A DNA stretch of 64,000 nucleotides from an uncultured Flavobacteriaceae bacterium (GTDB lineage: Bacteria > Bacteroidota > Bacteroidia > Flavobacteriales > Flavobacteriaceae), in assembly GCA_938092005.1 (NCBI GenBank), contig CALKOU010000007.1, forward strand, positions 34,523-98,522. The letters run 5' to 3'. Numbering within the stretch: position 1 is the first letter of the stretch; each line of letters opens with the position of its first letter. The position numbers were made by a program, and so were the translations under genes. A model generated the notes under the pieces. That model worked only from the letters and a program-made list of their open reading frames with translations, ran no database searches and was not told the origin of the DNA. Positions 7,276 through 63,657 of the stretch are shown in pieces.

Positions 7276-7285
7276 AACAACAATT

Positions 7286-14547: not shown

Positions 14548-14558
14548 AATAGGATATC

Positions 14559-16064: not shown

Positions 16065-16075
16065 TGTAATTACAA

Positions 16076-16745: not shown

Positions 16746-16941
16746 GTAACGCACAATATCATAGAGCTTTCTATCATTAGCAAAACGATCATTTTGTAAT
16801 GGAATTAACAGGTGTTGTTACCAAACTGTGGCGCGTAGCATAACCGATATTTTGTCTAAGTAAAGGATTGTTAATTTTAAACAAGGTTTGGAAATTTAAC
16901 ATTTTATTAACATATTTGAAATCGCTAACAATTAAAAAACA

Positions 16942-19900
16942 ATGAAGAAAAATAAATTTATTCAAATTTTAACACTTGCATTTTTAGCAGTGTTTCAAGT
17001 TGCTTTAGCACAACAATCGGTTTCAGGAACCGTAACAGATCAAGATGGTCTGCCGCTTCCTGGTGCATCTGTTATGGTTAAAGGAACAGCTACAGCTACG
17101 TCAGCTGACTTTGATGGTAATTATTCAATTGCAGCGGCTACCGGAGATATTTTGGTAGTGAGCTACGTTGGATACTCCGCTGTTGAAGCCTCTGTTAATA
17201 GTGCAACCGTTAATGTTTCACTTACAAGTGCCAACGAATTGGAAGAAGTTGTTGTACTAGGTTATGGTACACAACGAAAACTCGCACTTACGGGTTCTGT
17301 TGGTCAACTTGAAGCTGAAGCACTTGATAAAGCAAGAAATCCAAACGTGATTCAATCTGTAGTGGGTAAAGTTGCTGGGGTTCAAGTATTCAACAATACG
17401 GGACAACCAGGTTCTGGACCTACCGTACGTATTAGAGGTATTGGTTCGCTTTATGCATCCAGTGCCCCACTTTACGTAGTAGACGGGGTGCCTTTTAATG
17501 GTTCTATCAACACGATTAACCCACAAGACATTGCATCGATTACATTCCTAAAAGACGCATCTGCCGTATCCATTTATGGAAGTAGAGGTTCTAATGGTGT
17601 TGTGATTATCACCACCAAAACCAGCAAAAAAGGGGAAATCAAAGCATCTATTGATATCAGTACATCTATTGCCACGCGTGCCACTGAGGACTACGATCGT
17701 ATCATGAATGCTGGTAGCTATTATGAAGGATTCTTTATGGTATCCAGAAACACCTTAATGCACGACTTAGGATACAGTGATGCTCTAGCAAGAACTACAG
17801 CGGCAGCTAACCTTATTACGGATGGCGCTGGATTAGGATATTCACTTGGTTACAACGCCTATGGTGTTGCAAATAATGCATTAATCGATCCAGCAACGGG
17901 TAGATTATTAGCAAGCAACGACAACTTGCTTTGGAATGAGCGTTGGGACGACTATATGTTTGATGAAAACCTATCAAAGAAAATATTCTTGAATGTTTCG
18001 GGTGGTGGTGAGAATTCAAAAACGTATTTCTCTTTAGGTCATGAGGTAAATGAATCGTACGCTATAAACTCAAATTTTGAACGTACTACCGCTACATTTA
18101 AGCACAGTTTTAAGTTTAAAGACAAAATCAACTTAGACTCAAGCATTAATTATGCGCACACCGTGCAAAACACGCCTGACCAAGGAGGTTATGCAGGTGC
18201 ATTTAGCTGGACACGTTCTATTGCACCAATTTATCCAATATTTGGTTACGATCTTGACGGTACCCCTATTTTAGATGCTTCTGGAAAACAAGTTTATGAC
18301 TTTGGAGATAAATCTACAGGAACACCAACTGCAAGACCATATGCTGGATTTGCTAACCCATATGCAACATCTATATTAGATGAAAAAGTATTTACAACCA
18401 ACAACATCAATGCAACTGTAAACGCAAGCATTGATTTAACAGATGATATTTCAATTCGTCACATTTCTAACGTACTTAGTAGAACAACTAATGGCGTTAG
18501 TTACGATACTTCTGTAGGAGGTGATGCCTATTCTGTAGGGGGGCGTTCAACACCTTCTGCATCTAGTTCGTTTACTTTTTCAAATCAAACATTTTTAGAG
18601 TATAAAAGCTCTATTGGTGATCACAATATTGATTTCCTTGCAGGATATGAATCTAATGCATGGAAAAACGTAAACCTTTCAGCACAAAAAACGAAGTTCT
18701 TGCTACCGCAAGTAAACGTATTGAATCAAGGTATTACCATGCAGTATATGAATAACAGTGAGTATGACTATACTGTTAGAGGATGGATTGCAAGACTGTA
18801 TTATAATTTTGATGACAAGTACTTTTTCAGTACTAACTTAAGAAAAGATGCTTCTTCTGTGTTTGATCCTTCTGTTAGATGGGGTAACTTCTATGGCGGT
18901 GGTGCTGCATGGCGTATTTCTCAAGAAGACTTTTTTGATGTGAGCTTTATCAATGAATTAAAGATAAAAGCAAGTGTTGGACAAGTTGGTAATGATCGTA
19001 TTCTTTACCCTGACGGAGGAAGAAACTATTTAGCATACCAAGATCAATTTAGTGTTACAAACAACAACGGCGACTTTGGACTTGCATTAGCTTACCAAGG
19101 GAATCCAGCTTTAACATGGGAAACGTCAACCAATACAAACTTTGGTTTTGAAGCCAGCCTGTTTGACTCTAAAGTAACTATTGACTTTGAGTACTTTACA
19201 AGAAAAGTTGAAGACCTGTTGTTTAACACACCACAACCGCCATCTTCAGGATTGCCTAGCTTCCCTGAAAACATTGGAGACATGGAAAATCGTGGATGGG
19301 AACTAACCCTTAACGGTACAGCATACAGCAGTACAGATCTAAATATTGATTTTAACTTTAATATTTCAACCTTTGAAAACGAAATCACAAAACTCCCAAG
19401 AGATTTTATTGATGCAGGATCGTTTCGATATGAAGAAGGTCGTTCAGTGTATGAATACTACATGCGTGAATTTGCTGGTGTAAACCCTGCGAATGGTGCA
19501 GCAACATTCTACAAAGATATTCTTGATGACGATGGCAATCCTACTGGAGAACGTAATGTTACAGAAACGTTTGCTGAGGCAAGTGAATATTATTTAGACA
19601 AATCACCAATTGCTGATTTCTATGGCGGATTTGGTGCTGCTGTACAATACAAAAAAATAAGCTTTGGTATTAACTTTGCTTATTCTATCGGTGGCTATGG
19701 TAGAGACGCCACGTATTTCTCTATGCTACGTTCGGAGCCAGGAGAAAATTTCCACAACGATTTATTTACAAAAACATGGACACCAGAAAACACAAGTGCC
19801 CAATTACCAATCGTTGTTAAAAATGATGACAATACCTATTATGGAACTTCATCACTTTATTTTATAGACAATTCTTATCTAAGTATTCAGGACATCTCTG

Positions 19901-22383: not shown

Positions 22384-22417
22384 AACCACTCAACCTTTGG
22401 GATGAGTGGTTTTTTTT
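22384..22417 (+). terminator. Rho-independent terminator (AACCACTCA…TGAGTGGTT followed by T8)
   Basis: The hairpin and T-run were read directly from the sequence, 22 nt after the lipoprotein stop. The ORF-track ATG at 22402 lies inside the stem. Confidence 0.8.
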
Positions 22418-22422
22418 GCCTT

Positions 22423-24309
22423 ATGAAAAAAATATTTTTATTCTTTTTATGCATCCTAACTACATTTGGATATGCGCAAGAAATGTCGGACGGAAACAAA
22501 AAACTTTTAGAAGCGTTTAATCTAAGAGAAGAAAAAAAGAATGAAAGAGTAAAAGCATATCTAAAGATAAATAGTACAGAAAAAAAACGCTTTTCCAAAG
22601 ACGGAAAAACATTTGAAATTTTTGATATAAAGAATGGAAAGCCCCTCTATATTGCTACCGACAATATAAATTCGGCTAAAGGAACAAAAACAACACACCT
22701 TTACAACGGAGGGAGTTTAGGACTTTCGCTAGCTGGAAATGGCTACACAGTAGGCGTTTGGGATTCAGGAATTGTAGAAGTATCACATCAAGAATTTTTA
22801 ACAGACAATGAAGCAAAACTTGTCGTTGAAAACACTTTGGAAGTCACAAATCATGCCACCCATGTAAGTGGTACTATTGCAGCTCAAGGCACCAATAGTG
22901 CTGCAAAAGGAATGGCATATGATGCCAACATAAAATCGTACGACTGGACAAATGATGGCAGCGAAATGGTTACTGCCGCAAATGATTCAGAAAATCCAAT
23001 CTATTTCTCCAATCACTCGTATGGTTTTCCAATTTTTTCAGATGATAATGATGAGCAAAACGTTAGCTCAGAAAATATTGGCGCATACACAAGCTCGGCA
23101 AGAGACTGGGATAATATTGCATTCCAAAACAGAAAATTACTAATCGTTGGCTCTGCTGGAAATGACGGAACGACTACCTACGAAGGGGGGATGCTTCCAA
23201 ATTACGATAAACTAACAGGCACAAAAACAGCTAAAAACAACTTAGTAGTTGCAAATGCTAATCCAAGCTTTAATCCACTAACACAAGAACTAACAGGTTT
23301 CCCAATTAACAGCGGTAGCAGCAAAGGCCCAACAGACGATCTTAGAATAAAACCTGACATTTCTGGAGATGGCACAAATGTTTTCTCTAGCATCACAAAT
23401 AACGACTACGACAATTACTCTGGCACATCAATGGCCGCGCCTAACGTATGCGGCTCACTTGTTTTGGTACATGAGCATTATGTCAATATCACAAACGAAC
23501 TGCCAAACGCTGAAACCATAAAAGCCATTGCTTGCCATACAGCCCAAGATGATAGCGAAACCATTGGCCCAGATCCTATTTACGGATGGGGATTATTGAA
23601 TGCCAAAGCTGCTGCTGAGCTGATTAGTGCAACAGCAACTGGCGGTGCCCATATAAAAGAATCGTCGATCAATCAAGGAGATGAGTTTTCGATGCCTGTA
23701 GTAATTGAAAGCAGCACTAGACTTTCCGTATCGCTATGTTGGGCTGATCCACCTGGCCCTGTGTTCAATCCATCCCTTAATAATCCTGCACCAGTACTCA
23801 TGAATGATTTGGATTTACGCGTTACTAAAGATGGAGAAACGTATTACCCTTGGAAACTAAAATTAAATGAAAACAGCATTACAAACGAAAAAGGAGACAA
23901 TACTGTTGACAATTTTGAGAAAATAGATATTGAAACACCTACACCAGGAACATATACGATTTCGGTAAGTCATAAAAACAACTTAACAAACCCTAACCAA
24001 TCTCCGCTACAATTACCTAAGTATCAAGAGTTCTCACTCATTGTAAGTGGAATTAACAACTCATTAAGCACAAATAATAGCAACTATGATGTTTTCAAGA
24101 TATATCCGAACCCTATAAAAGATGGTGTGCTTAGCGTTCAAGGTGTTAACGAAGTTTCACAAGCAGCAATTAAAAATATTAGAGGTCAAATTGTTTGGGA
24201 TGGTATCTTGTCTACGGCCATTGATATAAGTCATTTGAATAGCGGAATGTACTTTTTAACAGTAAAAGGAAAAACCGACAAAACGGTTAAGTTCATCTTA
24301 GTAAAATAA
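22423..24309 (+). CDS. S8 (subtilisin-family) serine peptidase with T9SS C-terminal sorting domain
   Basis: The catalytic triad contexts are VGVWDSG (Asp), HATHVSGTIAA (His) and GTSMAAPNVCG (Ser). The C-terminal …FKIYPNPIKDGVLSV…LNSGMYFLTVKGK…KFILVK is a Por/T9SS CTD. The start MKKIFLFFLCILTTFGYAQ gives a signal peptide. Confidence 0.88.
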   Translation: MKKIFLFFLCILTTFGYAQEMSDGNKKLLEAFNLREEKKNERVKAYLKINSTEKKRFSKDGKTFEIFDIKNGKPLYIATDNINSAKGTKTTHLYNGGSLGLSLAGNGYTVGVWDSGIVEVSHQEFLTDNEAKLVVENTLEVTNHATHVSGTIAAQGTNSAAKGMAYDANIKSYDWTNDGSEMVTAANDSENPIYFSNHSYGFPIFSDDNDEQNVSSENIGAYTSSARDWDNIAFQNRKLLIVGSAGNDGTTTYEGGMLPNYDKLTGTKTAKNNLVVANANPSFNPLTQELTGFPINSGSSKGPTDDLRIKPDISGDGTNVFSSITNNDYDNYSGTSMAAPNVCGSLVLVHEHYVNITNELPNAETIKAIACHTAQDDSETIGPDPIYGWGLLNAKAAAELISATATGGAHIKESSINQGDEFSMPVVIESSTRLSVSLCWADPPGPVFNPSLNNPAPVLMNDLDLRVTKDGETYYPWKLKLNENSITNEKGDNTVDNFEKIDIETPTPGTYTISVSHKNNLTNPNQSPLQLPKYQEFSLIVSGINNSLSTNNSNYDVFKIYPNPIKDGVLSVQGVNEVSQAAIKNIRGQIVWDGILSTAIDISHLNSGMYFLTVKGKTDKTVKFILVK

Positions 24310-45648: not shown

Positions 45649-48600
45649 TTAGTTTACTATAATTTTTCCAGAGTGGATGTCACTCGAATTGGACAACGTT
45701 GAAATAAGTTCAATCGTGTACAAATAGGTTCCTTTATTTACTTTTTGACCATTGTAAGATGTTGCATCCCACGACAAACTATCGATTAAATAGCTTGTTG
45801 AAAACACGTTTTGGCTACTGTGCCATATACGTTTTCCATCGACGGCAAATATAGAAATTTTAACATCAAGAAGTTCTCTTGGTCGGTTATGCTGCACATA
45901 AAATATTGTTTGATTTGTAACAGGGTTCGGAGAATTGAACACCTTTTCAATTTGAATTGTGTTGTTATCAACAACGGTAAAGCTTATGGTTTTGGTGCTT
46001 GGGTTGTTATAGGTATCCCACCCGCGAACGGTCAAGGTGTGCCCTCCAAGCGCAAGATCATTAAGTGGATAAGCGATGCTTCCTTTTGTAAAATCATCCA
46101 AAACGGTGGCGTAAAACGCATTGAGAACATACGGACTTGTTTGATCATCATCCAATACAGCGATGATGTCATGACCTAGACCACCTGAAGAGTTTATGCC
46201 ATTTTCATCTTCTAAATCTATGATAAGCACAGGACTATCAAAAACCTTGTCGCCGCTTTTAAATGTTCTTTGTTCAAGAAAGACATCAATTGTAGGCCCC
46301 TGAGTATCTTGATCAACCGTATTGTTTATCCCCCCAATAGCAAAAGCTTCTGAGAAACCACCTACAGACTCTGTTTTGTCTTCATTAAATGCAATAAAAC
46401 TTATCTTAGATGCACCAACGTCCAAATTAATATCCTTAGGAATAACAAATGTGGATGTAAAAGTTCCGTCGCTTACCGTTGCCAACCCCTTAAACACTTC
46501 TTCGCCAAGCGTTTTAAAGGTCATGATTTTAGGCTGATCATTACCAAGCGTGGTACGCGTTACTTCCTTGTCAAAAATTTGCAGGGTTACCGCTCCATTG
46601 AAATCGTTTCTTATACCTCCTGCCGCATCTAACATTTTACCCTCTAGGGTGACCTTGTCAAGTGCTTTGAATTGACGTGCTTCATCAGAAACATCTTCAA
46701 TAGGGATACCATTCATGTGTGATATCACAATTTCGCGTTTGGGGATATTTAGTTTTAGTGCAGGATCTCCAATATAAAAAAGAACACGTTTTTGATCGGC
46801 ACCTGTAAATTCATTTTTAGCACGCCTTAGTGCTTCTGCGACACTGGTATAATTCTCGCTGTCATAGGCGAACAAGTGTTTTGAAAAAATCTTGTTGTAC
46901 GCTATTCCCCTGTCTACGTAAATTTGTCTTGTTGTGGACACCATCGCAATAGCTCCACCAACTGGGTTTTGATAAAGCATTTCACCAGCGGTTGGTCTGG
47001 TGTGGTTATCAAAGCGTGTAAACTCACAAGTAACGGTAATAAAAAGGGGGTATTTTCCGGGATGGAAGAGCGTTGAAACCATGTCCTTGTCTACGATAAA
47101 TTCTTGAGCCAAACCATCTTCTCCACCATGACCAAAATAATTAAGTGCCAAGGTCCCTTGGGACATGATGTTCTCTAAAGCTGTTTCAACTCCTGGATAA
47201 CGATCACCGCCAGCTGAGGCAACCTGCTTATACGCATCAGCATGAATCTTGGTAATGTTCATCAGTGGTTTTTGAGCAACAATCTCATCCCCTAATGCAT
47301 CTAATGTTTCTTGAAGAAAATAATCATCCTTATTTCTAGATTTATCTGCATCATCAGAGAGTATCGTAAAGCTATTGTTCCAGCTGCCGCTATTCTCTGG
47401 ATTTTCGTAATCAATGACTTTATTGACTAATACCCGCGCCTGCGAAGCATTAGAGAAAATCATGCGTCCCACAGCAATATCCATTTTGTCTGAAGCTGTG
47501 AGCAATCCTTCTTCTGCGTCCATCATTGTGAAAAAATCATCAGACATAAAAGAATATGTCAATGAAAAACTATTGAGTGCATGAAAAGTTGGAACTACCA
47601 TGTCATTGGCGGCAGTTCTCTTTTTATAGTCGTAGCTCGTATCGCCAAACAAACACAAATACTTTAACTGCTTTCCTTGTGTAAAGTAGAGATATTGCAC
47701 AAAATTTCGAATGGCAGCAATGTCTTGTTGGCCTATTGAAAAGGCTTCGTAAATTTCTTCTAATGTAACGAGTTGTGCAGCTAATCCTGCAACATGTTTT
47801 CGATGATTGATGAGCATTTCAGCTTCTTCACGAAATGCCTCGGAAGTAATTAACAAGTATGTTGTTGGAGAAAACGAGGTAATTTTATTTAAAAATGAAG
47901 TAGGACTAAAAACACGTGAGCGTCTAGTGTATGTAGGCGTTTTATAGTCCGTAGAAAGGTAAAATTTACTGTTGGCATCTACCATTACGTCGGTTGCAAA
48001 AGCAGGTGCGTTAGCAGGTGGAATGTGAACAACATCTGCGCCCAACTCCCAGATAGCGGTTTCAGGTGACACGGCGTCAATGGCAAGTTGTTGCACGGGA
48101 TTTTCCGAATCTAATGAAAACAAAAAACTTCCTCCAGACCCTGTAAAACTGCGTTCGTATTGCGCCGTTATGTAGTCTAAATATCCGTTTGAAGAAAAAT
48201 CTCCATTTGAAGAAAATGCAAGGGTCGCATTAATCTTGTCAGTCGCTTTTTGTTTTAAATAAAGTACTCCTCTAATTTGATTATAGCTACTGCTTGGCTC
48301 ATTAGCGATTGAAGTTTTATTATATCCCGCTACTGCTTTGACAACCTCTTCGGTGCCAATTTTCATGCTAAATTCAGTCTGGCTGGTACTAACGGTTGCC
48401 ACACGAGCCAAAACAACAACCTCAGCACCATCAGCTGCATTGGGCGTTTCTAACGTATATGCTTCTTCTTGCTTGTCTGAAAAGCGCTGACCAAACCAAC
48501 GTCTACCCAAAGCCCCTAAATTATACTCGTTTTCTTCTAAAAATGTAGTGTACGCTCCACTAGACACTGCATTGGCTGAAGGCGTATCACTTCCTTCTTG

Positions 48601-49056
48601 CACAAGCACTCGTTTACCAAAAGAAGCCCCATACGTAATGTAATATTGTGTAGTATCGTGATATAGATTTCGATAGGTTTGACTTTCTGCATTCCAGGTA
48701 TCGTTAGCATACCCCATAAACAAAATATAATCTTCATCGTCAAAACTTCCGTCTTGTTCTCCGCTAATAATTAAGGCGTTCTCATAGAGGGTTTCTACCT
48801 CCTCACCCAACTTTAGGGGAAGCATTTGCCCACCACGACCAAAAACACGAATGGTTCTTGGGTCAATGTCGTCTACTGGCACATCTAATTGTCGTAAAAA
48901 GTCTTTTGTTATTTTTTGGACGCCTGTTTCTTCTACAGAAAATTGACGCCAAACTTTTAAACCCTCATCTAAAAAGGGATGTGTATTTGCTACCTGAGCA
49001 GCAACAGGGTAACCACACAGCACAAAAAATAATATTGTCGAAAAAAAGTTTCGCAT
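45649..49056 (-). CDS. porU: Type IX secretion system sortase/C-terminal signal peptidase PorU
   Basis: The 1135-aa ORF has a gingipain (C25)-like core (…NYFGHGGEDGLA…, …FITVTCEF…) and its own T9SS CTD at the C-terminus. The arrangement porU-porV divergent from gldJ matches Flavobacterium johnsoniae. Confidence 0.85.
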   Translation of the reverse strand: MRNFFSTILFFVLCGYPVAAQVANTHPFLDEGLKVWRQFSVEETGVQKITKDFLRQLDVPVDDIDPRTIRVFGRGGQMLPLKLGEEVETLYENALIISGEQDGSFDDEDYILFMGYANDTWNAESQTYRNLYHDTTQYYITYGASFGKRVLVQEGSDTPSANAVSSGAYTTFLEENEYNLGALGRRWFGQRFSDKQEEAYTLETPNAADGAEVVVLARVATVSTSQTEFSMKIGTEEVVKAVAGYNKTSIANEPSSSYNQIRGVLYLKQKATDKINATLAFSSNGDFSSNGYLDYITAQYERSFTGSGGSFLFSLDSENPVQQLAIDAVSPETAIWELGADVVHIPPANAPAFATDVMVDANSKFYLSTDYKTPTYTRRSRVFSPTSFLNKITSFSPTTYLLITSEAFREEAEMLINHRKHVAGLAAQLVTLEEIYEAFSIGQQDIAAIRNFVQYLYFTQGKQLKYLCLFGDTSYDYKKRTAANDMVVPTFHALNSFSLTYSFMSDDFFTMMDAEEGLLTASDKMDIAVGRMIFSNASQARVLVNKVIDYENPENSGSWNNSFTILSDDADKSRNKDDYFLQETLDALGDEIVAQKPLMNITKIHADAYKQVASAGGDRYPGVETALENIMSQGTLALNYFGHGGEDGLAQEFIVDKDMVSTLFHPGKYPLFITVTCEFTRFDNHTRPTAGEMLYQNPVGGAIAMVSTTRQIYVDRGIAYNKIFSKHLFAYDSENYTSVAEALRRAKNEFTGADQKRVLFYIGDPALKLNIPKREIVISHMNGIPIEDVSDEARQFKALDKVTLEGKMLDAAGGIRNDFNGAVTLQIFDKEVTRTTLGNDQPKIMTFKTLGEEVFKGLATVSDGTFTSTFVIPKDINLDVGASKISFIAFNEDKTESVGGFSEAFAIGGINNTVDQDTQGPTIDVFLEQRTFKSGDKVFDSPVLIIDLEDENGINSSGGLGHDIIAVLDDDQTSPYVLNAFYATVLDDFTKGSIAYPLNDLALGGHTLTVRGWDTYNNPSTKTISFTVVDNNTIQIEKVFNSPNPVTNQTIFYVQHNRPRELLDVKISIFAVDGKRIWHSSQNVFSTSYLIDSLSWDATSYNGQKVNKGTYLYTIELISTLSNSSDIHSGKIIVN

Positions 49057-56089: not shown

Positions 56090-56584
56090 TTAAAAACTGT
56101 ATTGGGCAAAAATGCGGTCTTTCGTGTGTAAAAAACTTTTCTTCTTCGTTGAAATTGAAAGGGTTACGATGTTTTTTTGCTCTGGAAAGACTTCCATTAG
56201 AAACGTATTTGACCACTCTAATTGCATGAGCTTCGGAAGTGCATCAAAAGAGGCATACAACACCGTTTGATCTTGTTTGTACTCCCACCCCACAAAAGAA
56301 AACGTACTGCCTTCTGACAGGTTCTTGAGGTTAAAATGCGTTTGAAAATAAGAAGCAATATGTTGTTCCAAAATAGTGTGTGTGCGATTATCAGGATCAA
56401 GCTTGATGTCCTCAGAAGCAAATGCGCTTAAGGCTTTGGTAAAATCATCCGTAAAAACACGAACGACCAATTGAATTTGATTGCTTTCTGGCTTGTAATA
56501 CATGTCTGTTGTACTCACGTAGTATTTGTGCGATGCAGATGTAAGCAGCGGAACAATGAGCAAGAAAAACAAAAAACGCATCAC
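56090..56584 (-). CDS. Hypothetical secreted protein (resembles the DUF6702 family)
   Basis: The 164-aa ORF has a signal peptide followed by SHKYYVSTTDMYY, like the HKFYVS… start I recall for DUF6702 proteins. It overlaps the upstream gene by 4 nt. Confidence 0.5.
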   Translation of the reverse strand: MMRFLFFLLIVPLLTSASHKYYVSTTDMYYKPESNQIQLVVRVFTDDFTKALSAFASEDIKLDPDNRTHTILEQHIASYFQTHFNLKNLSEGSTFSFVGWEYKQDQTVLYASFDALPKLMQLEWSNTFLMEVFPEQKNIVTLSISTKKKSFLHTKDRIFAQYSF

Positions 56585-57309
56585 TGGTTTTTATTAAATT
56601 TTTGACTGGTTTTGATCAAAAAATCCATGATTTCGAAATCGGATTTATCTTCTAGTAATGCTTTGGTTTTAATCTCACCATCGCAATACAACAAAAACAA
56701 CTCAATATTATCTTGGTCAATATGCAATTGCTCGATAAAAAACGGATCGTCATACAGTTGGCGAATAACTGTGCTGGGTTGCAATTGAGAGGCTTTTTCT
56801 TTCTTCTTTCCTTTTCCTTCAACCGAGCGATACAATGCCTTAAATATATTAACGAAGTTCACGCCATTGTATAACTGATTTTGTCGCATTAAGGTGTTCT
56901 CAACTCTTGTTGAGCGGTCACGTTTATAATCAAATGTCTTAAATTCTTCGGCGCGTAAGTCCAAGAATTTTTGGCGTTGCTCAGGCGTAACGACTACCTC
57001 TTCAAGCTCGGTTACTTTTTCGTTTACGTCAATAACCAAACGCCCACGTTGTAATATTTCTTTATTGATGTTGACTATGCGAATTTGGTATTGTAGTGAG
57101 GTAAACACAAGCTCATCATCCATCATAACTTCAATGGCAAATTCACCATTATCGTCCGAAATGGTAGCCTTTTTGGAAGTGGTGTTGACCACATTGGCAG
57201 CCATTACGTTTTCGTTTTTATATAAAATCTTACCTCTAAGCCACGTGCGATAATCGGACTGAGCCATTGCTAAAGGAGCAAAAAGTAAAAAAACAAACAA
57301 ATGACGCAT
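56581..57309 (-). CDS. Carboxypeptidase-regulatory-like domain protein
   Basis: The 242-aa ORF has a signal peptide, and LRGKILYKNENVMAANVVNTTSKKATISDDNGEFAI matches the CarboxypepD_reg pattern. Confidence 0.6.
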   Translation of the reverse strand: MRHLFVFLLFAPLAMAQSDYRTWLRGKILYKNENVMAANVVNTTSKKATISDDNGEFAIEVMMDDELVFTSLQYQIRIVNINKEILQRGRLVIDVNEKVTELEEVVVTPEQRQKFLDLRAEEFKTFDYKRDRSTRVENTLMRQNQLYNGVNFVNIFKALYRSVEGKGKKKEKASQLQPSTVIRQLYDDPFFIEQLHIDQDNIELFLLYCDGEIKTKALLEDKSDFEIMDFLIKTSQKFNKNQ

Positions 57310-57363: not shown

Positions 57364-57795
57364 CTATTCGCCTAAACGCTTAACGAAGTGAAAACCCAAA
57401 TGCGCAAACCCTTCTCGAGCATACAACCGGTGTGAAGCTGTGTTTTCTTTGTAAGCATTTAACTCAAGAGCTTCATAACCTTCGGCTTTTAGTGTATCGC
57501 CAATCCAACTTATAAATTGCGTTCCCAAGCCCTTCCCTTGAAATTCAGGCTTGATGTAAAGGTGATCCAACTCACAACTTTTTCCTGAATAATGTCGGGT
57601 TTGATACCAAAGACCACAGAGGCCTATGAGCTTATTGTTTTGATAAAACCCAATGCAATCATATTCATGCTGAAACATGGCTGTGAAACGTTTTGCATGC
57701 ACCGTATCAGTATATTTATGATGCGTAAAATCTTGCATCAAAGGCAAAATATCAGGGATATTCCCTACATTTAAATATCTAAATTCAATTTCCAT
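57364..57795 (-). CDS. GNAT-family N-acetyltransferase
   Basis: The 143-aa ORF has the acetyl-CoA-binding motif …FQGKGLGTQFISW…. Confidence 0.85.
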   Translation of the reverse strand: MEIEFRYLNVGNIPDILPLMQDFTHHKYTDTVHAKRFTAMFQHEYDCIGFYQNNKLIGLCGLWYQTRHYSGKSCELDHLYIKPEFQGKGLGTQFISWIGDTLKAEGYEALELNAYKENTASHRLYAREGFAHLGFHFVKRLGE

Positions 57796-57803
57796 AGCAA
57801 CAC

Positions 57804-58241
57804 TTGCAACTCGTTACAAACATACAATTTAAACACATTAAAGCTACAGACACTTACGCAGTGCGCCACCCTGTTTTACGTAAGGGATTACCCATAAGCA
57901 GTTGCGCCTTTGACCGTGATGAAGACAATAGCACCATACACTTAGGAGCACTGCTTGACAATAAACTTATCGGAGTGCTTACGCTAATGCGTCATGCAAC
58001 AGCTATGCAACTAAGAGGCATGGCAGTATTGGAACCCTATCAAGGGCAGGGTGTTGGAAAACAACTGATCACCAAAGCAGAGGAGCTAATAAAGACTCAA
58101 AACAGAGCTATCATTTGGATGAATGCACGCCTGATTGCCATTCCTTTTTATGAAGCCTGTGGCTATCACAAAGAAGGAAGTGCGTTTGTATTACCCTATG
58201 GTGAAACACACTACAAAATGACCAAAAAACAATGCGGATAG
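57804..58241 (+). CDS. GNAT-family N-acetyltransferase (TTG start)
   Basis: The 145-aa ORF contains …YQGQGVGKQLI… and …ARLIAIPFYEACGY…. There is no in-frame ATG before residue 62, and the frame opens only at 57798, so TTG 57804 is the first usable start. Confidence 0.75.
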   Translation: MQLVTNIQFKHIKATDTYAVRHPVLRKGLPISSCAFDRDEDNSTIHLGALLDNKLIGVLTLMRHATAMQLRGMAVLEPYQGQGVGKQLITKAEELIKTQNRAIIWMNARLIAIPFYEACGYHKEGSAFVLPYGETHYKMTKKQCG

Positions 58242-58933
58242 TCTTTATTTTATTGATGCTAAGTCAATGGGCAATGGCTCAAATAACAATCGTGCAACTG
58301 TTGGGAATCGATGAAAGCCATCTGATATCCGTTGAGCAACAGCAGTTAACCGAAAAAACAGCAACTGCATTTTGTGCCATGCAAGAAGCAGCACTAGCAG
58401 ACGGTATTGACATCCAATTGGTGTCGGCCTTTCGATCTTTTGCGCGGCAACAATACATTTGGGAAAACAAGTTTGACCGCTACACAAGCGATGGCCTAAC
58501 CCCTAATGAAGCCATAAACCGAATTTTAGCGTATTCCACCATTCCCGGAACTTCGAGGCATCATTGGGGTACCGATATTGACATTACAGATGGTAACGCC
58601 ACCAACCAAAAGCAACTACTTGTTGCTGAAAAATTTCACAACAACGGCCCTTTTGCTCCATTGCACCAATGGATGCAAGCCAACGCACACCGCTTTGGGT
58701 TTTATTTGGTTTATACCAACAACAGCAACCGTACTGGATTTTCGTATGAACCTTGGCATTATAGCTATTTGCCCGAAGCAAAAGCCTTTCTAAACGACTA
58801 CGAACCCCGAACCGCTTTTGCTTTTTTTAAATCGGTTGGCATTAAGGGTAGTGCCTATATAGACTATGCATTTTGGGAGCGCTATTATGCGCAATTTATT
58901 TTGGGGGTGAATAAAGCGTTGTTGGAAGAGTGA
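58232..58933 (+). CDS. M15-family D-alanyl-D-alanine carboxypeptidase (VanY-like)
   Basis: The sequence has a signal peptide, SAFRSFARQ, PGTSRHHWGTDIDI (SxHxxGxxxD) and EPWHYSY. Confidence 0.85.
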   Translation: MRIVFILLMLSQWAMAQITIVQLLGIDESHLISVEQQQLTEKTATAFCAMQEAALADGIDIQLVSAFRSFARQQYIWENKFDRYTSDGLTPNEAINRILAYSTIPGTSRHHWGTDIDITDGNATNQKQLLVAEKFHNNGPFAPLHQWMQANAHRFGFYLVYTNNSNRTGFSYEPWHYSYLPEAKAFLNDYEPRTAFAFFKSVGIKGSAYIDYAFWERYYAQFILGVNKALLEE

Positions 58934-58994
58934 TTTCGTTGCTTCCTTGTACGCATCTGTGATACGTGACGTATCTTTCTTAAAATGGTACGCG

Positions 58995-59045
58995 TCGCAG
59001 ACCTGCCTGGCGGCTAGACAGGCGCGCACCAGAGGGGGTAGTCAT
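58995..59045. repeat. GC-rich intergenic element related to the 11135-11156 hairpin
   Basis: CCTGCCTGGCGGCTAGACAGGC here resembles CCTGCCTGCCGGTAGGCAGGC at 11136-11156, with about 20 of 22 positions matching. This is a ~65% GC patch at the edge of an AT-rich island. Confidence 0.5.
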
Positions 59046-59048
59046 TTT

Positions 59049-59597
59049 TTAATTTTCCATTACGACACTATAAATCAATTTACCTGATTCTTTATTTTGT
59101 GTAATTATTGTGTAATAAGAGTTAACGTTCAGTTTTACAACAGTTAATAGTCTTGAATCAACATCCTTTATTTCAACATTTATGTTATAATACTGTTTCC
59201 TTTTTTTTATTAAATGATCATCCCAACCCTTAATATCAGATATAGAAATTTGACAAATTAATTCATATTCCCTCTCATTATACTTGTTTGAAGGAATATT
59301 CCTTAAATCAACTTCTAAAGGGTTTTTAGCATTTAAATCATAGTTGAAATTTAACTTAAAGTTTTTGAAATCTTTTTTCAGATTTTTCTTAAAAGTCTTC
59401 TGTAATCTTTTTTTAAGGTCCAAAAAATAATATATATAATGAGTATGCCCCTTAAAAATAAATAGAATTGATTTTGGTTTATTATACTCATCTATTTTTT
59501 CATTTTCAATTATTCTTACGCCTGGTTCAAACTTTTCACTTTTCTGAGAAAAAGCATTTAAACTATAAACTAAAACTATCAGTACTATTATTTTCAT
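59049..59597 (-). CDS. Hypothetical exported protein (island gene 3), no family recognised
   Basis: The 182-aa ORF has a signal peptide (MKIIVLIVLVYSLNAFSQ), is Lys/Asn-rich, and is about 25% GC. Confidence 0.6.
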   Translation of the reverse strand: MKIIVLIVLVYSLNAFSQKSEKFEPGVRIIENEKIDEYNKPKSILFIFKGHTHYIYYFLDLKKRLQKTFKKNLKKDFKNFKLNFNYDLNAKNPLEVDLRNIPSNKYNEREYELICQISISDIKGWDDHLIKKRKQYYNINVEIKDVDSRLLTVVKLNVNSYYTIITQNKESGKLIYSVVMEN

Positions 59598-59701
59598 TTC
59601 ATTTTTTTAATTTAATCCATTCAACAAAAGAGGCAATACCTCGTTAGTTTGCTTGAGTATCTAGCCCTACTAAAACAGGTGCGCCAGAGTAGGAAATCTC
59701 A

Positions 59702-60145
59702 TTACTCTTTTCGCATATTACTTCCTGAAAATTCAAATAACTCAACATTCCTGTCATCAAAAGCCCCATGCTCTATTTTAACATAAAAGCTTGGGTATTT
59801 TATTTCTATTATTTCAACAATTTTTGGGTCATACATTCCCTCTATCTTATAAAGTTTACTCCAAGAATAATAATCCCCATCAGGCTTTATTGACACTAAA
59901 AAACTGTAGAGTATTTCACAAGACTCAGGAGAAAATTCTGAAGGTGTAGCTTTAGAATCGCTCATTAAAAATAAGTTTACATAAAATGCCCCATTATATA
60001 AGGAGGCTTTTTTTTCACACACCAGTAAATTTGATATAATATAATTTAGCTCAGTATTAGGCGTTAGTGCTGTCACTTTTATATCGTTCTGTGCATTGCA
60101 TATTAAAGCAAAAAACACAAATAAAAATGCAATTACTTTTTTCAT
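59702..60145 (-). CDS. Hypothetical exported protein (island gene 2), no family recognised
   Basis: The 147-aa ORF has a signal peptide (MKKVIAFLFVFFALICNAQ). It starts 13 nt after the stop of the 601-aa gene. Confidence 0.6.
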   Translation of the reverse strand: MKKVIAFLFVFFALICNAQNDIKVTALTPNTELNYIISNLLVCEKKASLYNGAFYVNLFLMSDSKATPSEFSPESCEILYSFLVSIKPDGDYYSWSKLYKIEGMYDPKIVEIIEIKYPSFYVKIEHGAFDDRNVELFEFSGSNMRKE

Positions 60146-60158
60146 GATTTATTAAATT

Positions 60159-61964
60159 TTAAGGTTTTCTTATTGCAAAATGTATATGGTTTTTGTGTGC
60201 AGTTTTCACGCTTTCTCTGTTTAAATCCCACTGATTATTTTCAACTTCATATCTGTGATTAAAATATGGACCATAATTTTCTCTAATGTACGGGAAAGCA
60301 TCAAAGGCTTTTTGAAACTCTTTAATTTGATTTGTTAGCCCTGTTTCAATCATTCGCTTTCCATTAATACTATTGATATCTAGTGCAGTACTATTATAAT
60401 GATTACTTTCATTCCCATGCTTTCCATTTGTTGTTGCATAAATGTTGATGTTAGTTATTTTATCTCCTAAAGACAAGTTAGAGTTCGCTTTTTCTAATGC
60501 AAATTTTAACCCATTAACAAGTTCAGTTGCAACGGGTTGGTTTGAGCTAATACCATCTTTAGTATGTGTAATAAAAGTTACATCCACCTTAGTTCCGTTT
60601 GACAAAACAAGAACACTAGGTATTTTTTGTTTTGGTCCTTGGTAAACATAATTATCATCAGGCGTTTCTGTGGAAATATAAAATTCTTCAAAATCCACTT
60701 CACCACCATTTCCCAATGCCACAAGTGCCGCTTCTGCAAAATCTTTTCTTATAGAAAAATTATTTTGAATTTCGTTATCTTCTTCTAAGAAATAAAACAT
60801 TGATTTCAATATACTTGGGTTTTCTTCAAGGTACTCAAAACTAGCTGGTTTCTGAGCCTTAAGTTCATGCATAAAGTAAAAAAACTGTGTTATATAACTT
60901 TGTTTTTTTGCATGGTCTACTATTGAGGTTTTTTCTGATGTTATGTATGAATTAATTTGACTTACATAAACCTTTTTATAGTATTCGCTTATCGTATTTT
61001 TTAATCCTGCCATTTTGTAGGGGTAAAAGTACTGAAAGGGCACATATGAGCTTCCTGTGGTATTTCGAGGAATTCTAACATCCTGTACAGAAAAAGTTAA
61101 AACTGGCTGTGTATGATTTACTGGAGAGCTATGTCCAGTACCAATGCCAATCGTGTATGACCCCGTAAATACTCCAGCCGCTTTGAGCGAAGCAATTACG
61201 TGGTAAGGAAGTGTGTTTAATGGTGGTAACACGTAACCAATACCAGAAGCAGAAGAACCCACATATCCCCTATCAGGTGGGAATGGTGTCCACTTTGGTG
61301 CAGGTGTGGAACTACCTCCACTTCGACAACTACATTTTTTTGCATACGCTAAACTTTTTGTTGATAGCTTTTTAATTTTTTGAATACTATCGTTATTCGT
61401 TTTTTTTTCTTCTATATCTTCAGTTTCATCTACATCTGTAAGCTCCATAAAAAATATTTTATCCCAAAACCCATCATAACTTTTATTTTTGATTGCCATT
61501 ACAAACTCATCTGGTGTAAGGTCATACCTAATTAAGTTACTTTTTAACTGATTATTCTCATCATAATACGTGTGGAGGTTGATTTTTCCTTTTGAACTGG
61601 TTGTTGTGTCTGGTAATTTAACTTCAAAAGTATAAGACGGTATTCCTTTTTCATTTCTAACTTCAGCAAACACATCTGTGTTGATTTCTATTTTATGAAG
61701 TGCGGTTTCATCTAAGTTTCTACTATAATACGATTCAGATTTTATTGTTGAATCATTAGATTCTGCAGGAAACAAAAATTTTAACGTAGAGAGGTTTTTT
61801 GTTACGTTAAACTTCAAATCAATATCACTTATTTCATGTTTATAAAAAAACTCAATATGGTTGTCATTTTGCGGTTCTTGGTTTGAAAAATCTTCAGTTT
61901 CCAACTCCTCAACACATCCAAAAAACAATACCGTTACTAAAATAGGTGTAATAAACTTTTTCAT
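60159..61964 (-). CDS. Hypothetical lipoprotein with C-terminal LAS-type (M15/M74/hedgehog-like) zinc peptidase motifs
   Basis: The 601-aa ORF has a lipobox (VLFFGC). SNHYNSTALD (aa 520-529, nt 60378-60407) fits SxHxxGxAxD with Gly replaced by Ser. HIH (aa 593-595, nt 60180-60188) sits in HKNHIHFAIR. I did not recognise the N-terminal 470 aa. Confidence 0.6.
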   Translation of the reverse strand: MKKFITPILVTVLFFGCVEELETEDFSNQEPQNDNHIEFFYKHEISDIDLKFNVTKNLSTLKFLFPAESNDSTIKSESYYSRNLDETALHKIEINTDVFAEVRNEKGIPSYTFEVKLPDTTTSSKGKINLHTYYDENNQLKSNLIRYDLTPDEFVMAIKNKSYDGFWDKIFFMELTDVDETEDIEEKKTNNDSIQKIKKLSTKSLAYAKKCSCRSGGSSTPAPKWTPFPPDRGYVGSSASGIGYVLPPLNTLPYHVIASLKAAGVFTGSYTIGIGTGHSSPVNHTQPVLTFSVQDVRIPRNTTGSSYVPFQYFYPYKMAGLKNTISEYYKKVYVSQINSYITSEKTSIVDHAKKQSYITQFFYFMHELKAQKPASFEYLEENPSILKSMFYFLEEDNEIQNNFSIRKDFAEAALVALGNGGEVDFEEFYISTETPDDNYVYQGPKQKIPSVLVLSNGTKVDVTFITHTKDGISSNQPVATELVNGLKFALEKANSNLSLGDKITNINIYATTNGKHGNESNHYNSTALDINSINGKRMIETGLTNQIKEFQKAFDAFPYIRENYGPYFNHRYEVENNQWDLNRESVKTAHKNHIHFAIRKP

Positions 61965-62114
61965 AATTCAGGATTTTAAACCCCAAACCATTCAAAAGAA
62001 AACAAAGGACGTAGGTCAAACTTGGTCTTAAATACACGATTAGGGGCGTGTTGATGCTAAGTTAAACAAAAAAATTGAGTCTAAAAAGTACTTTACAAGC
62101 GTTACGGATTGCCC

Positions 62115-62122
62115 TATCTTTG
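62115..62122 (+). promoter_or_regulatory. -7 box TATCTTTG upstream of gpmI
   Basis: This is an exact TAnnTTTG 17 nt before the ATG at 62140. Confidence 0.45.
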
Positions 62123-62139
62123 CACCACAATTTAGACCT

Positions 62140-63657
62140 ATGAATAAACGTGTTGTTTTAATGATTTTAGACGGTTGGGGCATCTCTCCTGACCCAGCGG
62201 TTTCGGCAGTAGCCCAAGCCAACACTCCCTTTGTGGATAGCCTTAGTACAGCCGCAGTGCACAATGTACTCCACACCGATGGTATGCATGTGGGACTTCC
62301 CGAAGGACAAATGGGAAACAGCGAAGTGGGACACGTAAACTTAGGTGCTGGGCGAGTGGTGTATCAAGACCTTGCCAAAATAAACATGGCCGTAAAGCAA
62401 GACACGCTTAAAGACGAAGCCGTACTTCAAGATGCCTTTGCATACGCCAAAGCAAACAACAAAGCCGTTCACTTTTTGGGATTGGTTTCTGACGGAGGTG
62501 TGCATGCGCACATCAACCACCTCGAAGGATTGTTAAAAGCGGCGCACGCAGCAGCCGTACCCAAAAGCTATGTACACGCCTTTACTGATGGTCGTGATGT
62601 GGATCCCAAATCGGGTGCTGGTTTTTTAGCTAAGGTGCAAGCCATTTGTGCTACTACCAACGCACACCTAGCCAGTGTGGTAGGACGCTATTTTGCAATG
62701 GATCGCGATCAGCGTTGGGAACGGGTTAAAAAAGCATACGACGTGTTGGTACACGGCACAGGAACTACTACCGAAAACCTTGACAAGGTCATTCAGACAA
62801 ACTATGCCGCAGGTACAACTGACGAGTTTATTGAACCAATAGTGTTACCTGAAGACGGAGACATAGCCGCTGGCCGTGTGAAAGAAGGAGATGTGGTCAT
62901 CTTCTTTAATTTCCGCACCGATCGTGGACGCGAACTTACACAAGCATTAAATCAAGTGGCCTTTCCAGAATACGGAATGGAACCGCTTTCGCTACACTAT
63001 GTCACGCTTACCAACTACGATGAATCCTTTAAGGATGTTAAAGTGGTGTATGACAAAGAAAATATTGCACAAACACTGGGCGACGTGTTGTCCAAAGCAG
63101 GTAAAAAGCAAATCCGCATTGCCGAAACCGAAAAATATCCACACGTTACCTTTTTCTTTAACGGGGGTCGTGAAGAACCTTTTGATGGCGAAGAGCGCAT
63201 CTTATGCCCATCCCCTAAAGTGGCTACCTATGACCTGCAACCCGAAATGAGCGCATACGATATTCGAGATGCGATTGTGCCCAAACTCAAAGCACAGGCA
63301 ACCGATTTTGTTTGCCTAAACTTTGCCAATCCAGATATGGTGGGACACACAGGCGATATGGCGGCTGCCATAAAAGCTTGCGAAGTGGTAGATGGTTGCA
63401 CAGCCGATGTAGTAGCCGCTGCCAAAGAAGGCGGGTACTCGGTTATTATCATTGCCGATCACGGCAACTGCGACACGATGATAAACCCTGACGGAAGTCC
63501 AAATACCGCACACACCACCAACTTAGTACCTGTCTATCTTATTGATGCAGACGCAAAAAGCATCAACGAAGGTGCGCTTTGCGATATTGCACCAACAGTA
63601 CTAGAACTTATGGGTGTCGATCAACCTTCTGCCATGACCGCAAAATCATTACTTTAG
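62140..63657 (+). CDS. gpmI: 2,3-bisphosphoglycerate-independent phosphoglycerate mutase
   Basis: The 505-aa ORF contains LMILDGWG, MGNSEVGH.N.GAGR, VSDGGVH.H and ADHGN. Confidence 0.96.
   Translation: MNKRVVLMILDGWGISPDPAVSAVAQANTPFVDSLSTAAVHNVLHTDGMHVGLPEGQMGNSEVGHVNLGAGRVVYQDLAKINMAVKQDTLKDEAVLQDAFAYAKANNKAVHFLGLVSDGGVHAHINHLEGLLKAAHAAAVPKSYVHAFTDGRDVDPKSGAGFLAKVQAICATTNAHLASVVGRYFAMDRDQRWERVKKAYDVLVHGTGTTTENLDKVIQTNYAAGTTDEFIEPIVLPEDGDIAAGRVKEGDVVIFFNFRTDRGRELTQALNQVAFPEYGMEPLSLHYVTLTNYDESFKDVKVVYDKENIAQTLGDVLSKAGKKQIRIAETEKYPHVTFFFNGGREEPFDGEERILCPSPKVATYDLQPEMSAYDIRDAIVPKLKAQATDFVCLNFANPDMVGHTGDMAAAIKACEVVDGCTADVVAAAKEGGYSVIIIADHGNCDTMINPDGSPNTAHTTNLVPVYLIDADAKSINEGALCDIAPTVLELMGVDQPSAMTAKSLL

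Follow-up and report, generated by a model that had tools for sequence, protein, structure and literature searches.

The 64,000-nucleotide (nt) stretch of DNA analysed here, referred to as the window, comes from an uncultured Flavobacteriaceae bacterium (assembly GCA_938092005.1, contig CALKOU010000007.1, positions 34,523 to 98,522). Between a VanY-family gene and gpmI it carries an AT-rich islet of three minus-strand genes, encoding a lipoprotein of 601 amino acids (aa) and two small exported proteins of 147 and 182 aa. A preliminary description of this DNA, made from its letters alone, had suggested a cell-wall-directed polymorphic toxin followed by periplasm-directed, immunity-like proteins in an accessory islet. 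Comparative evidence supports this suggestion for the toxin, the accessory islet and the first of the two small proteins. As judged from sequence comparison, a polymorphic toxin/immunity locus of some kind is very probable, and the fuller explanation that we consider best, a lipoprotein-anchored polymorphic toxin-immunity locus, is given a probability of about 0.8. The genes and intergenic features at the locus are listed below.

58934..62139, no strand: accessory insert, the whole islet between VanY and gpmI; 31.6% guanine-cytosine (GC), the lowest of any 3.2-kb segment in the 64 kb

60159..61964, minus strand: open reading frame (ORF) of the predicted 601-aa lipoprotein polymorphic toxin; in the homologue alignment its N-terminus is conserved and the C-termini are variable

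59702..60145, minus strand: gene for the 147-aa exported protein, candidate cognate immunity; starts 13 nt past the toxin stop

59630..59642, minus strand: terminator-like hairpin between the 147-aa and 182-aa genes, from a consensus scan only

59049..59597, minus strand: gene for the 182-aa exported Lys-rich protein, a likely passenger; absent from all 53 metagenome loci found with the toxin C-terminus

58232-58933: VanY-family flank gene (PF02557, E 1e-38)

62140-63657: gpmI flank gene

The three ORFs were found to be co-directional, at the positions and with the 13-nt spacing given in the preliminary description. The insert is AT-rich, as described there: the mean GC content of the window is 40.2%, with a standard deviation (SD) of 2.9% for 3.2-kb segments, and the insert lies about 2.9 SD below that mean. 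By gene, GC content is 23.7% for the 182-aa gene, 30.2% for the 147-aa gene and 32.6% for the toxin gene. The value of about 47% that had been given for both flanks applies to gpmI (47.6%) but not to VanY (43.4%). None of the three proteins could be placed in a named family, again as described; the only matches in Pfam, NCBIfam, PADLOC, PHROG and the PDB sequences were far below cut-offs and functionally implausible. The export leaders that had been proposed are visible as hydrophobic N-terminal stretches, and in the 601-aa protein the leader ends in a conserved lipobox Cys17.

No integrase or transposase was found in the insert, in line with the reported lack of a mobility gene. Mobile-element boundaries were considered and rejected, there being no convincing direct or inverted repeats on either side. 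Judging from the terminator-like hairpin that divides the 147-aa from the 182-aa gene, the toxin gene would be co-transcribed with the 147-aa gene, and the 182-aa gene would be transcribed on its own. A scan of the locus for sigma-70 promoters gave nothing above shuffled expectation, the consensus being uninformative for Bacteroidetes. The three-gene module, with an identical 601-aa protein, recurs in at least two other independent sequencing runs, and in a third the toxin gene is present on a short contig that ends just past it. The module is therefore not an artefact.

The organization of the 601-aa protein and of the cassette that follows its constant part was established by homologue alignment and comparison of loci. 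The features are as follows.

61890..61964, minus strand: signal peptide with lipobox Cys17 (aa 1-17) and acidic tract C-V-E-E-L-E-T-E-D (aa 17-25), resembling the Bacteroidetes lipoprotein export signal

60741..61889, minus strand: constant N-terminal region (aa ~26-408), presumably serving trafficking or delivery

61212..61334, minus strand: low-complexity Gly/Ser/Pro/Thr-rich segment (aa 211-251), after a C-x-C motif; disordered in the model

60684..60740, minus strand: junction motif FAEAALVALGNGGEVDFEE (19 aa, aa 409-427), the joint between constant and variable parts

59430..60743, minus strand: recently exchanged cassette, extending from the junction through the C-terminal domain and the 147-aa gene into the 182-aa gene, of which it takes in at least the start

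Searched against 5.8 billion proteins, the 601-aa protein had 23 homologues, most of them aligning over only about 60-78% of the query. In the alignment, conservation ran from the lipobox Cys17, itself nearly invariant, to about residue 408, and the sequences were unrelated beyond the junction motif. The N-terminal family is small, with 22 representatives in 1.84 billion proteins, 12 of which were found at E <= 1e-30. Identity over this scaffold is 77-89% in proteins P0001-P0004 and locus L088, and 36-47% in Formosa-type homologues; Formosa sp. Hel1_33_131 (FORMB_15470) is a culturable carrier. No Pfam or NCBIfam model matched the region, and its AlphaFold2 (AF2) model has a predicted local distance difference test score (pLDDT) of 48, with only a helical part at 65-87. 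In this low-confidence model the first third (~170 aa) is rich in beta structure and the last quarter, before the junction, is helical, with the C-x-C motif and the Gly/Ser/Pro-rich segment between them. The segment consists of 60% G/S/P/T/N over 40 aa, and an equivalent occurs at about aa 180-270 in nine of the ten other lipoprotein toxins examined. In most N-terminal families examined, the junction is likewise preceded by a motif that contains Cys and, at about aa 180-270, by a stretch in which Gly/Ser/Asn/Pro make up 55-75% of 40 residues.

Beyond the junction, Pfam scans and the homologue alignment identified DUF6973, Tae4, Tox-MPTase3 and SprT-like zincin domains as alternative C-termini on the scaffold. 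Tae4 is a type VI amidase effector family. More distant scaffold representatives end in an AHH nuclease, a Colicin/Pyocin-S2 DNase or further Tae4 domains. The architecture is modular, a homologous N-terminus carrying unrelated C-terminal toxin domains in different strains. The window C-terminus in turn was found on unrelated lipoprotein N-termini, with 100% aa identity on P0006 and 64% on P0021, and in metagenome loci about six N-terminal clusters bear this type of C-terminus, with nothing in common but the 30-80 residues that precede the junction. It was also found in short orphan genes of 180-260 aa, which lack a signal peptide and start just before the junction. The junction motif itself is conserved across different N-terminal families and at the starts of orphan cassettes. 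In the array at locus L010, full-length lipoprotein toxins are followed by orphan C-terminus/immunity cassettes, and ahead of the orphan with a window-type C-terminus stands a second copy of the pre-junction segment found in the upstream full-length gene.

Comparison of the window with related loci located the exchange points. Relative to loci L001 and L002, DNA identity is 97.6-97.9% from 60743 onward, through the junction, the C-terminus, the 147-aa gene and the start of the 182-aa gene, whereas the gpmI flank is only 78% identical and the toxin N-termini are unrelated. Relative to L088, homology (81%) extends from gpmI through the N-terminal region, ends at 60687 and resumes (89%) only over the 182-aa gene; between the breakpoint and its 182-aa homologue, L088 carries a DUF6973 C-terminus and a 120-aa gene. 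The breakpoints at 60743 and 60687 therefore bracket the 19-codon junction motif. Locus L005 occupies the same gpmI site and has the same N-terminus, followed by a C-terminus of 76% identity and an unrelated 182-aa lipoprotein gene. Behind this newer pair lie the last 35 codons of a window-type C-terminus (91% identical) and a frameshifted 147-aa gene, a remnant that is, on its sequence, a displacement scar. By comparison of these loci, C-terminal cassettes have been swapped at the junction motif, apparently by homologous recombination. The three-gene island of the preliminary description is not, as a whole, the exchangeable unit. What is swapped begins at the junction motif, while several relatives keep the N-terminal part as a resident of the gpmI site.

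The same comparisons bear on whether the locus is a decaying, non-functional relic of past cassette traffic. Pseudogenised pieces are indeed present in the related locus L005, and AT-rich accessory DNA is often silenced. In the window, however, none of the three ORFs is disrupted and no conserved motif residue is missing. Two other sequencing runs yielded the toxin gene together with unbroken 147-aa and 182-aa genes, and a third yielded the toxin gene. Copies of the cassette in other lineages match it at about 98% identity, implying that transfer was recent and that selection has been purifying. We consider it highly improbable that the locus is a relic.

The variable part of the protein in the window contains a single predicted domain with two putative metal-binding motifs, located as follows.

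60162..60683, minus strand: C-terminal toxin domain (aa 428-601), LAS/Hedgehog-DD-peptidase-like, a presumed peptidoglycan peptidase

60378..60404, minus strand: metal-ligand motif N-H522-Y-N-S-T-A-L-D529 (H-x6-D)

60180..60197, minus strand: motif H590-K-N-H593-I-H595 (H-x-H)

The H-x6-D and H-x-H motifs correspond to the LAS zinc-peptidase pair that had been noticed in the C-terminus, and alignment of 15 family members showed their residues to be invariant or nearly so. The N, H, T, A, D and I of the first motif (N-H-x-x-x-T-A-x-D-I) are invariant, and H-x-x-H-I-H is broken only in a truncated sequence. Sonic hedgehog has S-L-H-Y-E-G-R-A-V-D-I and H-I-H at its zinc site, and M15 enzymes have the motif S-x-H-x-x-G-x-A-x-D. 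An AF2 model of the domain, built with the 15 family members, reached a pLDDT of 78 and a predicted template modelling score of 0.77, with the junction residues disordered. A Foldseek search of the PDB with this model returned Hedgehog N-terminal domains as all of its top 15 matches (probability 0.77-1.0, E ~2e-3, template modelling (TM) score 0.36-0.48), followed by the zinc peptidase domain of VldE. In the viral library BFVD the best match was a hedgehog-like protein, and ARB_07466-like and M15 lysin domains ranked below it. The top fold matches are in keeping with the LAS fold that had been proposed for this domain. At the level of profiles, sub-threshold Pfam matches to Peptidase_M15_3 (best E 6.5e-5), Peptidase_M15_4 and VanY were found in 3-7 of the 15 family members. 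When the family was aligned to a VanY alignment with hhalign, the sole aligned block was the zinc-ligand motif, which fell on the S-x-H-x-x-G-x-A-x-D of VanY.

Several results count against this assignment. The window's own C-terminus has no Pfam match to M15, only some of its relatives do, and those matches lie below curated thresholds. A search of PDB sequences with the profile of the C-terminal family found nothing, and hhalign gave the alignment to VanY a probability of only 14%. The Hedgehog fold matches reached only TM 0.36-0.48, with a root-mean-square deviation of 6-7 Å, and the catalytic Glu that is usual in M15 enzymes has no obvious counterpart in the domain. We therefore assign the domain with moderate confidence to a divergent branch of the LAS/Hedgehog-DD-peptidase fold, and from the model and motifs a zinc peptidoglycan peptidase is its reasonably likely activity. 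Such an enzyme would depend on zinc and act on peptidoglycan, and it is predicted to be toxic. In the WHIX effectors of type VI secretion systems (T6SS; PMC12135965), DD-peptidase domains of M15-like, M23 and MepA-like type have been predicted to act as toxin modules, so LAS-type enzymes appear to be used as weapons elsewhere.

To identify partners of the domain, genes following it in other loci were compared. A metagenome scan with the C-terminal alignment found 53 loci, 34 of which had an intact C-terminal gene and downstream sequence. In 29 of the 34, the gene located -4 to +17 nt downstream of the C-terminal gene belonged to the 147-aa family, with about 22 distinct sequences; two had a 182-aa lipoprotein of the L005 type at this position and three an unclassified gene. 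C-terminal identity in the 147-aa-linked metagenome loci is 49-68%. A 147-aa-family gene also follows the C-terminus in loci L001, L004, L008 and L010. In the last three, homologues of 40-44% identity stand beside C-termini of 52-64% identity, and next to the 100%-identical C-terminus on a different N-terminus the 147-aa protein is 99% identical. Locus L010 additionally bears a stand-alone copy of the 147-aa family. The family diverges faster than the toxin domain (23-49% against 49-68% identity), and immunity proteins usually diverge faster than their toxin domains.

All members of the 147-aa family have a hydrophobic leader that ends in Cys, with Gln three residues on (usually Cys-x-[Ala/Ser]-Gln), and without an acidic tract. 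Such a leader would suit a lipoprotein facing the periplasm, or else a substrate of signal peptidase I with Gln as its first residue. With either leader type the protein would be periplasmic, where a peptidoglycan peptidase would need neutralising. One group of loci speaks against the pairing. The C-terminus of P0001, which is 76% identical to that of the window, pairs with an unrelated 182-aa lipoprotein rather than with the 147-aa family, and this lipoprotein takes the place of the 147-aa family in L005 (2601-3644), L100 and L105. As a C-terminus of 76% identity has switched partner and those of 49-68% have kept the 147-aa protein, immunity pairing is not one-to-one with the domain family. 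From its linkage and leader, the 147-aa protein is nevertheless probably the cognate immunity protein, and as such it would neutralise the C-terminal domain.

The preliminary description had proposed two small partner proteins, and only the first behaved as one. A gene for the 182-aa protein was present in none of the 53 metagenome loci with a window-type C-terminus. It does stand beside the cassette in L001, at 96% identity, but this copy is nearly identical to that of the window and is therefore not independent evidence. Homologues occur in other settings. One of 85% identity is the last gene of a gpmI-site locus, behind a different pair consisting of a DUF6973 toxin and a 120-aa gene (L088-L091). 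Another lies in L086 (335-6729), within a run of small, mostly leaderless genes beside the end of an mltG-like gene; this run includes a weak, sub-threshold SUKH (SMI1_KNR4) match and a DUF6985 protein, and looks like a heterogeneous island of immunity genes. A Tenacibaculum homologue (L085) is next to a lipoprotein toxin-like gene and an insertion sequence, and that in L084 stands alone between unrelated genes. Given its absence from the 53 loci and these other settings, a role as second cognate immunity protein was rejected. The 182-aa protein appears to be a passenger, and its reading as an orphan immunity gene is tentative and the weakest assignment made here.

Small lipoprotein genes were also seen at two of these loci. 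The toxin array of L010 contains three tandem paralogous lipoproteins of 114-117 aa (6350-7979). By eye they resemble a 111-aa lipoprotein that replaces the 182-aa gene in L005 (4285-4620), and together they may represent another immunity family.

We then compared the site of insertion among relatives. A genome scan with VanY as query gave uncultured marine Flavobacteriaceae metagenome-assembled genomes (MAGs) as the closest representatives, at about 70% identity (best 71%), and the gene order GNAT-VanY-gpmI was a conserved backbone in about 20 related MAGs. That VanY might directly adjoin gpmI in relatives had been raised in the preliminary description, and this is what was observed. The site is empty, with a gap of 55-60 bp, in L011, L012, L016 and L030, and empty with a 70-bp gap in Mesonia (L042, L044). 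Gaps of 121-310 bp were found in L025, L026 and L028, with no ORF of at least 60 aa in L025 and L026. A gap of about 670 bp, holding a single unrelated lipoprotein gene, occurs in L020, L021, L024, L027 and L032, and gaps of 1.6-4.4 kb with other low-GC cargo occur in L013, L014, L015, L019 and L022. Toxin, 147-aa and 182-aa genes were found in none of the genome representatives from the VanY scan. The islet is accessory rather than part of the syntenic core, and the gpmI-VanY site is, on these comparisons, a hotspot for accessory DNA and a reproducible one for strain-level variation in the clade.

Other cargo at the site varies in kind. In L015 (8693-11290) and L022 (2091-6519) it includes a low-GC pair of 286-aa and 65-aa proteins, to which L022 adds proteins of 367 and 137 aa and a small helix-turn-helix protein; this cargo looks defence-like. 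Many other MAGs have an unrelated 182-aa lipoprotein at the site.

These data can be set against the niche-specific wall-remodelling function that the preliminary description had offered as its alternative. In that case the lipoprotein would be an endogenous peptidoglycan peptidase that remodels the producer's own wall, and the small exported proteins its regulators or partners. The resemblance of the C-terminus to DD/LD-peptidases and the VanY-type carboxypeptidase gene next door are what such a function would lead one to expect, and lipoprotein-anchored peptidoglycan hydrolases with inhibitor partners exist. The neighbouring gene, however, is a backbone feature independent of the insert. VanY was for this reason rejected as a functional partner of the toxin, the VanY-gpmI backbone being conserved with or without insert, and many relatives that retain an intact VanY-gpmI pair lack the locus altogether. 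Wall remodelling is also hard to reconcile with a scaffold that bears DNases, Tae4 amidases and zincins in homologues, with a C-terminus found as an orphan cassette in toxin/immunity arrays, and with recent lateral exchange of the cassette. It is accordingly a very improbable explanation of the locus.

The remaining part of the reading concerns how a lipid-anchored toxin would leave the producer and reach its target. Acidic residues follow the lipobox Cys in the window protein (C-V-E-E-L-E) and in most full-length relatives examined, in which the tracts read C-S-K-D-E, C-Q-K-D-E, C-E-E-N-E and C-N-E-E-E. The sequence C-X-K-(D/E)2-X, or S-D-D-F-E in F. johnsoniae, suffices to send a lipoprotein to the surface (Lauber et al. 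2016, PMC5080379), and in Bacteroides the surface exposure of lipoproteins is coupled to vesicle packing (PMC6222051). Homologue signals C-S-K-D-E and C-Q-K-D-E match this optimum, and the acidic tract of the window protein can be likened to S-D-D-F-E. We slightly favour surface exposure of the toxin by way of this acidic signal.

Markers of other export routes were absent, as had been stated earlier for PAAR, Rhs, VgrG and the C-terminal sorting domain (CTD) of type IX secretion systems (T9SS). Pfam and NCBIfam scans of the 601-aa protein matched no PAAR, VgrG, Hcp, Rhs/YD repeats, MIX/FIX, WHIX, two-partner secretion domain or VENN motif. Pfam detected no T9SS sorting domain (Por_Secre_tail, type B CTD) in it either, its C-terminus being the toxin domain. 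The sorting-domain test works here, since a genuine Por_Secre_tail was detected elsewhere in the window, on an S8 subtilase (22402-24309). A 1135-aa Peptidase_C25 PorU-like protein is encoded at 45649-49056. The host thus probably has a T9SS, and the toxin lacks its sorting signal. As the preliminary description had foreseen for the case of an antagonism module, no known delivery marker is present at the locus.

Three points weigh against delivery from the cell surface by means of the scaffold. In the signal C-V-E-E-L-E, position +2 is Val, and the Lys or polar residue favoured at +2/+3 is missing. No secretion or uptake genes were found near the loci examined, including those in Formosa and a related contig (L092, L093), where toxin and small-gene pairs lie behind an AraC-type regulator. 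The model of the N-terminal region, at pLDDT 48, is too poor to interpret. Display on the surface or on vesicles and scaffold-mediated entry are deduced from the acidic lipobox signal and the common layout of the toxins; the delivery step is conjectural, given the lack of nearby secretion or uptake genes and the state of the N-terminal model. Any specific entry mechanism is unlikely to be the right one.

If, with unchanged toxin/immunity logic, the lipoprotein instead faced the periplasm from the outer membrane, it could pass directly into the periplasm of a recipient by vesicle fusion or by SitA/TraAB-like outer-membrane exchange. An anchor in the inner leaflet would place a periplasm-acting peptidase correctly after fusion, and both the deviation of the window's acidic tract from the optimal export signal and the lack of dedicated secretion genes nearby would be accommodated. 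Nuclease C-termini on the same scaffold, on the other hand, would still require a further import step, and we know of no TraAB-type exchange in Bacteroidota. Lipoprotein polymorphic toxins are delivered by such exchange in myxobacteria, but orthologues of SitA occur only in traAB species (PMC5562445). Most members of the present family, moreover, have a near-perfect C-x-K/Q-(D/E)2 signal, which drives surface exposure in three Bacteroidetes species (PMC5080379). Delivery by membrane fusion is therefore considered quite unlikely.

The central disordered segment raises a further option, a diffusible colicin-like bacteriocin that is released whole or as a cleaved fragment, binds an outer-membrane receptor of the target through its structured N-terminal part and threads the disordered segment through a porin or TonB-dependent transporter, so bringing in the C-terminus. 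The three-part layout does resemble that of colicins and pyocins. The Gly/Ser/Asn/Pro-rich segment recurs in the nine of ten other lipoprotein toxins mentioned above, and a Colicin/Pyocin-S2 DNase forms the C-terminus of one homologue. The likeness is one of composition alone, however: homology to the receptor or translocation domains of colicins and pyocins could not be detected, and no lysis or release gene is present. A lipid anchor also argues against free diffusion unless the protein is cleaved. This option is conjectural and considered unlikely.

Two nuclease-bearing homologues were longer than the window protein. P0067 (794 aa), which bears the Colicin/Pyocin-S2 DNase, has about 200 extra residues between scaffold and DNase, and P0065 (665 aa) bears the AHH nuclease. 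With such C-termini, the lipoprotein platform would have to deliver some of its cargo to the target cytoplasm.

In the lipoprotein-anchored toxin-immunity reading, which we prefer, the 601-aa protein would be exported by Sec and lipidated at Cys17. The acidic export signal would then flip the protein outwards onto the cell surface, and outer-membrane vesicles would in consequence probably carry it too. Residues 1-408 would serve as a constant scaffold, made up of a structured first third, the C-x-C motif with the disordered stretch, and a helical pre-toxin region, and homologous recombination at the junction motif would exchange one C-terminal cassette for another. In the periplasm of a competitor, the predicted zinc peptidase would cut peptide stems or cross-links of peptidoglycan. 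In the periplasm of the producer, the 147-aa protein would neutralise the peptidase during transit of the toxin and on attack by kin. The 182-aa gene would be a passenger in its own right, perhaps an orphan immunity gene that remained from an earlier cassette. More speculatively, and in our view improbably, the loci could represent a new delivery platform of Bacteroidota that works without T6SS, T9SS or two-partner secretion, in which lipidated toxins would be flipped outwards by the lipoprotein export pathway and displayed on the surface or on vesicles. A common unit of structured head, C-x-C motif with Gly-rich disordered thread, helical pre-toxin region and 'NGGEVDF' joint would then carry periplasm-acting domains (LAS peptidase, Tae4) or cytoplasm-acting ones (colicin-type DNase, AHH) into neighbours.

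The organization of the locus agrees with that of polymorphic toxin systems, for which passages of the survey of Zhang et al. (2012, PMC3482391) describe a shared constant N-terminus, polymorphic C-termini, a downstream immunity gene and orphan cassettes with recombinational displacement. Tox-MPTase3 and AHH, both C-termini on the window scaffold, are among the polymorphic-toxin domains catalogued in those passages. Lineage-specific N-terminal domains that follow a signal peptide or lipobox are described there as well (MAFB-N, Microscilla-N and APD1/APD2 of Amoebophilus). APD1 and APD2 likewise follow a lipobox, but are thought, in the same passages, to be deployed in parallel against a eukaryotic host and not serially swapped. 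The 'NGGEVDF' junction motif is not among the passages of the survey examined, and term searches of it returned no LAS/M15-type toxin domain.

SitA/SitI of Myxococcus (Vassallo et al. 2017, PMC5562445) offers a further parallel, with a type II signal peptide and lipobox, a conserved N-terminus, unrelated C-terminal toxins, downstream immunity and a location in accessory DNA. SitA differs in being delivered by TraAB outer-membrane exchange, with orthologues confined to traAB-bearing Myxococcales. Its C-termini are cytoplasmic nucleases with cytoplasmic immunity, whereas the window toxin is a predicted periplasm-directed peptidase with an exported partner; the window locus also has no SitB-like gene upstream and does have an acidic surface-export signal. 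Compared by description, SitA may be regarded as an analogue of the window toxin, and no family assignment is implied.

TANFOR toxins (Jana, Salomon and Bosis 2020, PMC7073777) are likewise specific to Bacteroidetes, with a signal peptide, variable C-terminal toxins, downstream immunity and, as for the window toxin, no established export route. They are large proteins, defined by TIGR02542 and often containing Fn3 repeats, that are hypothesised to be T9SS substrates. Membership of the window protein was rejected: an NCBIfam scan, with TIGR02542 assumed to be among its models, gave 0 families at E <= 1, and the protein is a lipoprotein and much shorter. Peptidoglycan-targeting effector/immunity pairs of T6SS, such as Tae4-Tai4 and those of WHIX effectors (the latter in PMC12135965), share with the locus a periplasmic wall enzyme and an adjacent exported immunity protein. 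Tae4 is also among the alternative C-termini of the window scaffold. The window toxin would be exported by Sec with lipoprotein processing, in contrast to contractile injection.

LAS peptidases (M15 VanY/VanX, phage L-Ala-D-Glu peptidases, M23 lysostaphin and Hedgehog-N) share with the window domain the elements S-x-H-x-x-[G/S]-x-A-x-D-I and H-x-H and, with moderate confidence, the predicted fold; the window domain differs from these in ending a swappable toxin scaffold, and is not a housekeeping enzyme or endolysin. In the full-text literature searched, no paper on DUF6973 or on lipoprotein polymorphic toxins in Flavobacteriia was found; the junction motif and the 147-aa family were not search terms. 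A lipoprotein-anchored toxin class of this kind was not found described, and it is not a member of the APD1/2, SitA or TANFOR classes.

Marine Flavobacteriaceae are major degraders of algal organic matter, and their mutual antagonism is poorly known. The locus points to a compact toxin format, independent of a secretion system, in which scaffold, joint, toxin and immunity are recognisable by sequence and could be mined in metagenomes. It adds two candidate families without a curated profile in the libraries searched, the M15/Hedgehog-like toxin domain and its exported partner, and the pair may help in the study of peptidoglycan peptidase inhibition. If the proposed delivery holds, it would link the lipoprotein surface-export pathway and vesicles of Bacteroidetes to interbacterial antagonism. 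In the more speculative platform reading, the Hedgehog-like C-terminus would be a bacterial weapon built on the fold that serves Hedgehog signalling in animals.

Other features of the window were recorded in passing. The region at 13.5-17 kb is almost as AT-rich as the insert, with 32.3% GC over 3.2 kb. It (13500-17000) spans the end of a SusC-like TonB receptor gene (11494-14547) and a 501-aa ORF without Pfam match (14559-16064), and also takes in the gap ahead of the next SusC/SusD pair. On the VanY side of the islet, two divergent GNAT acetyltransferase genes lie in the 57364-58933 region, the second of which (57804-58241) overlaps VanY by 10 nt. Just upstream of these, at 56090-57309, a DUF6702 protein (164 aa) and a CarboxypepD_reg-like protein (242 aa) are encoded by a gene pair that overlaps by 4 nt.

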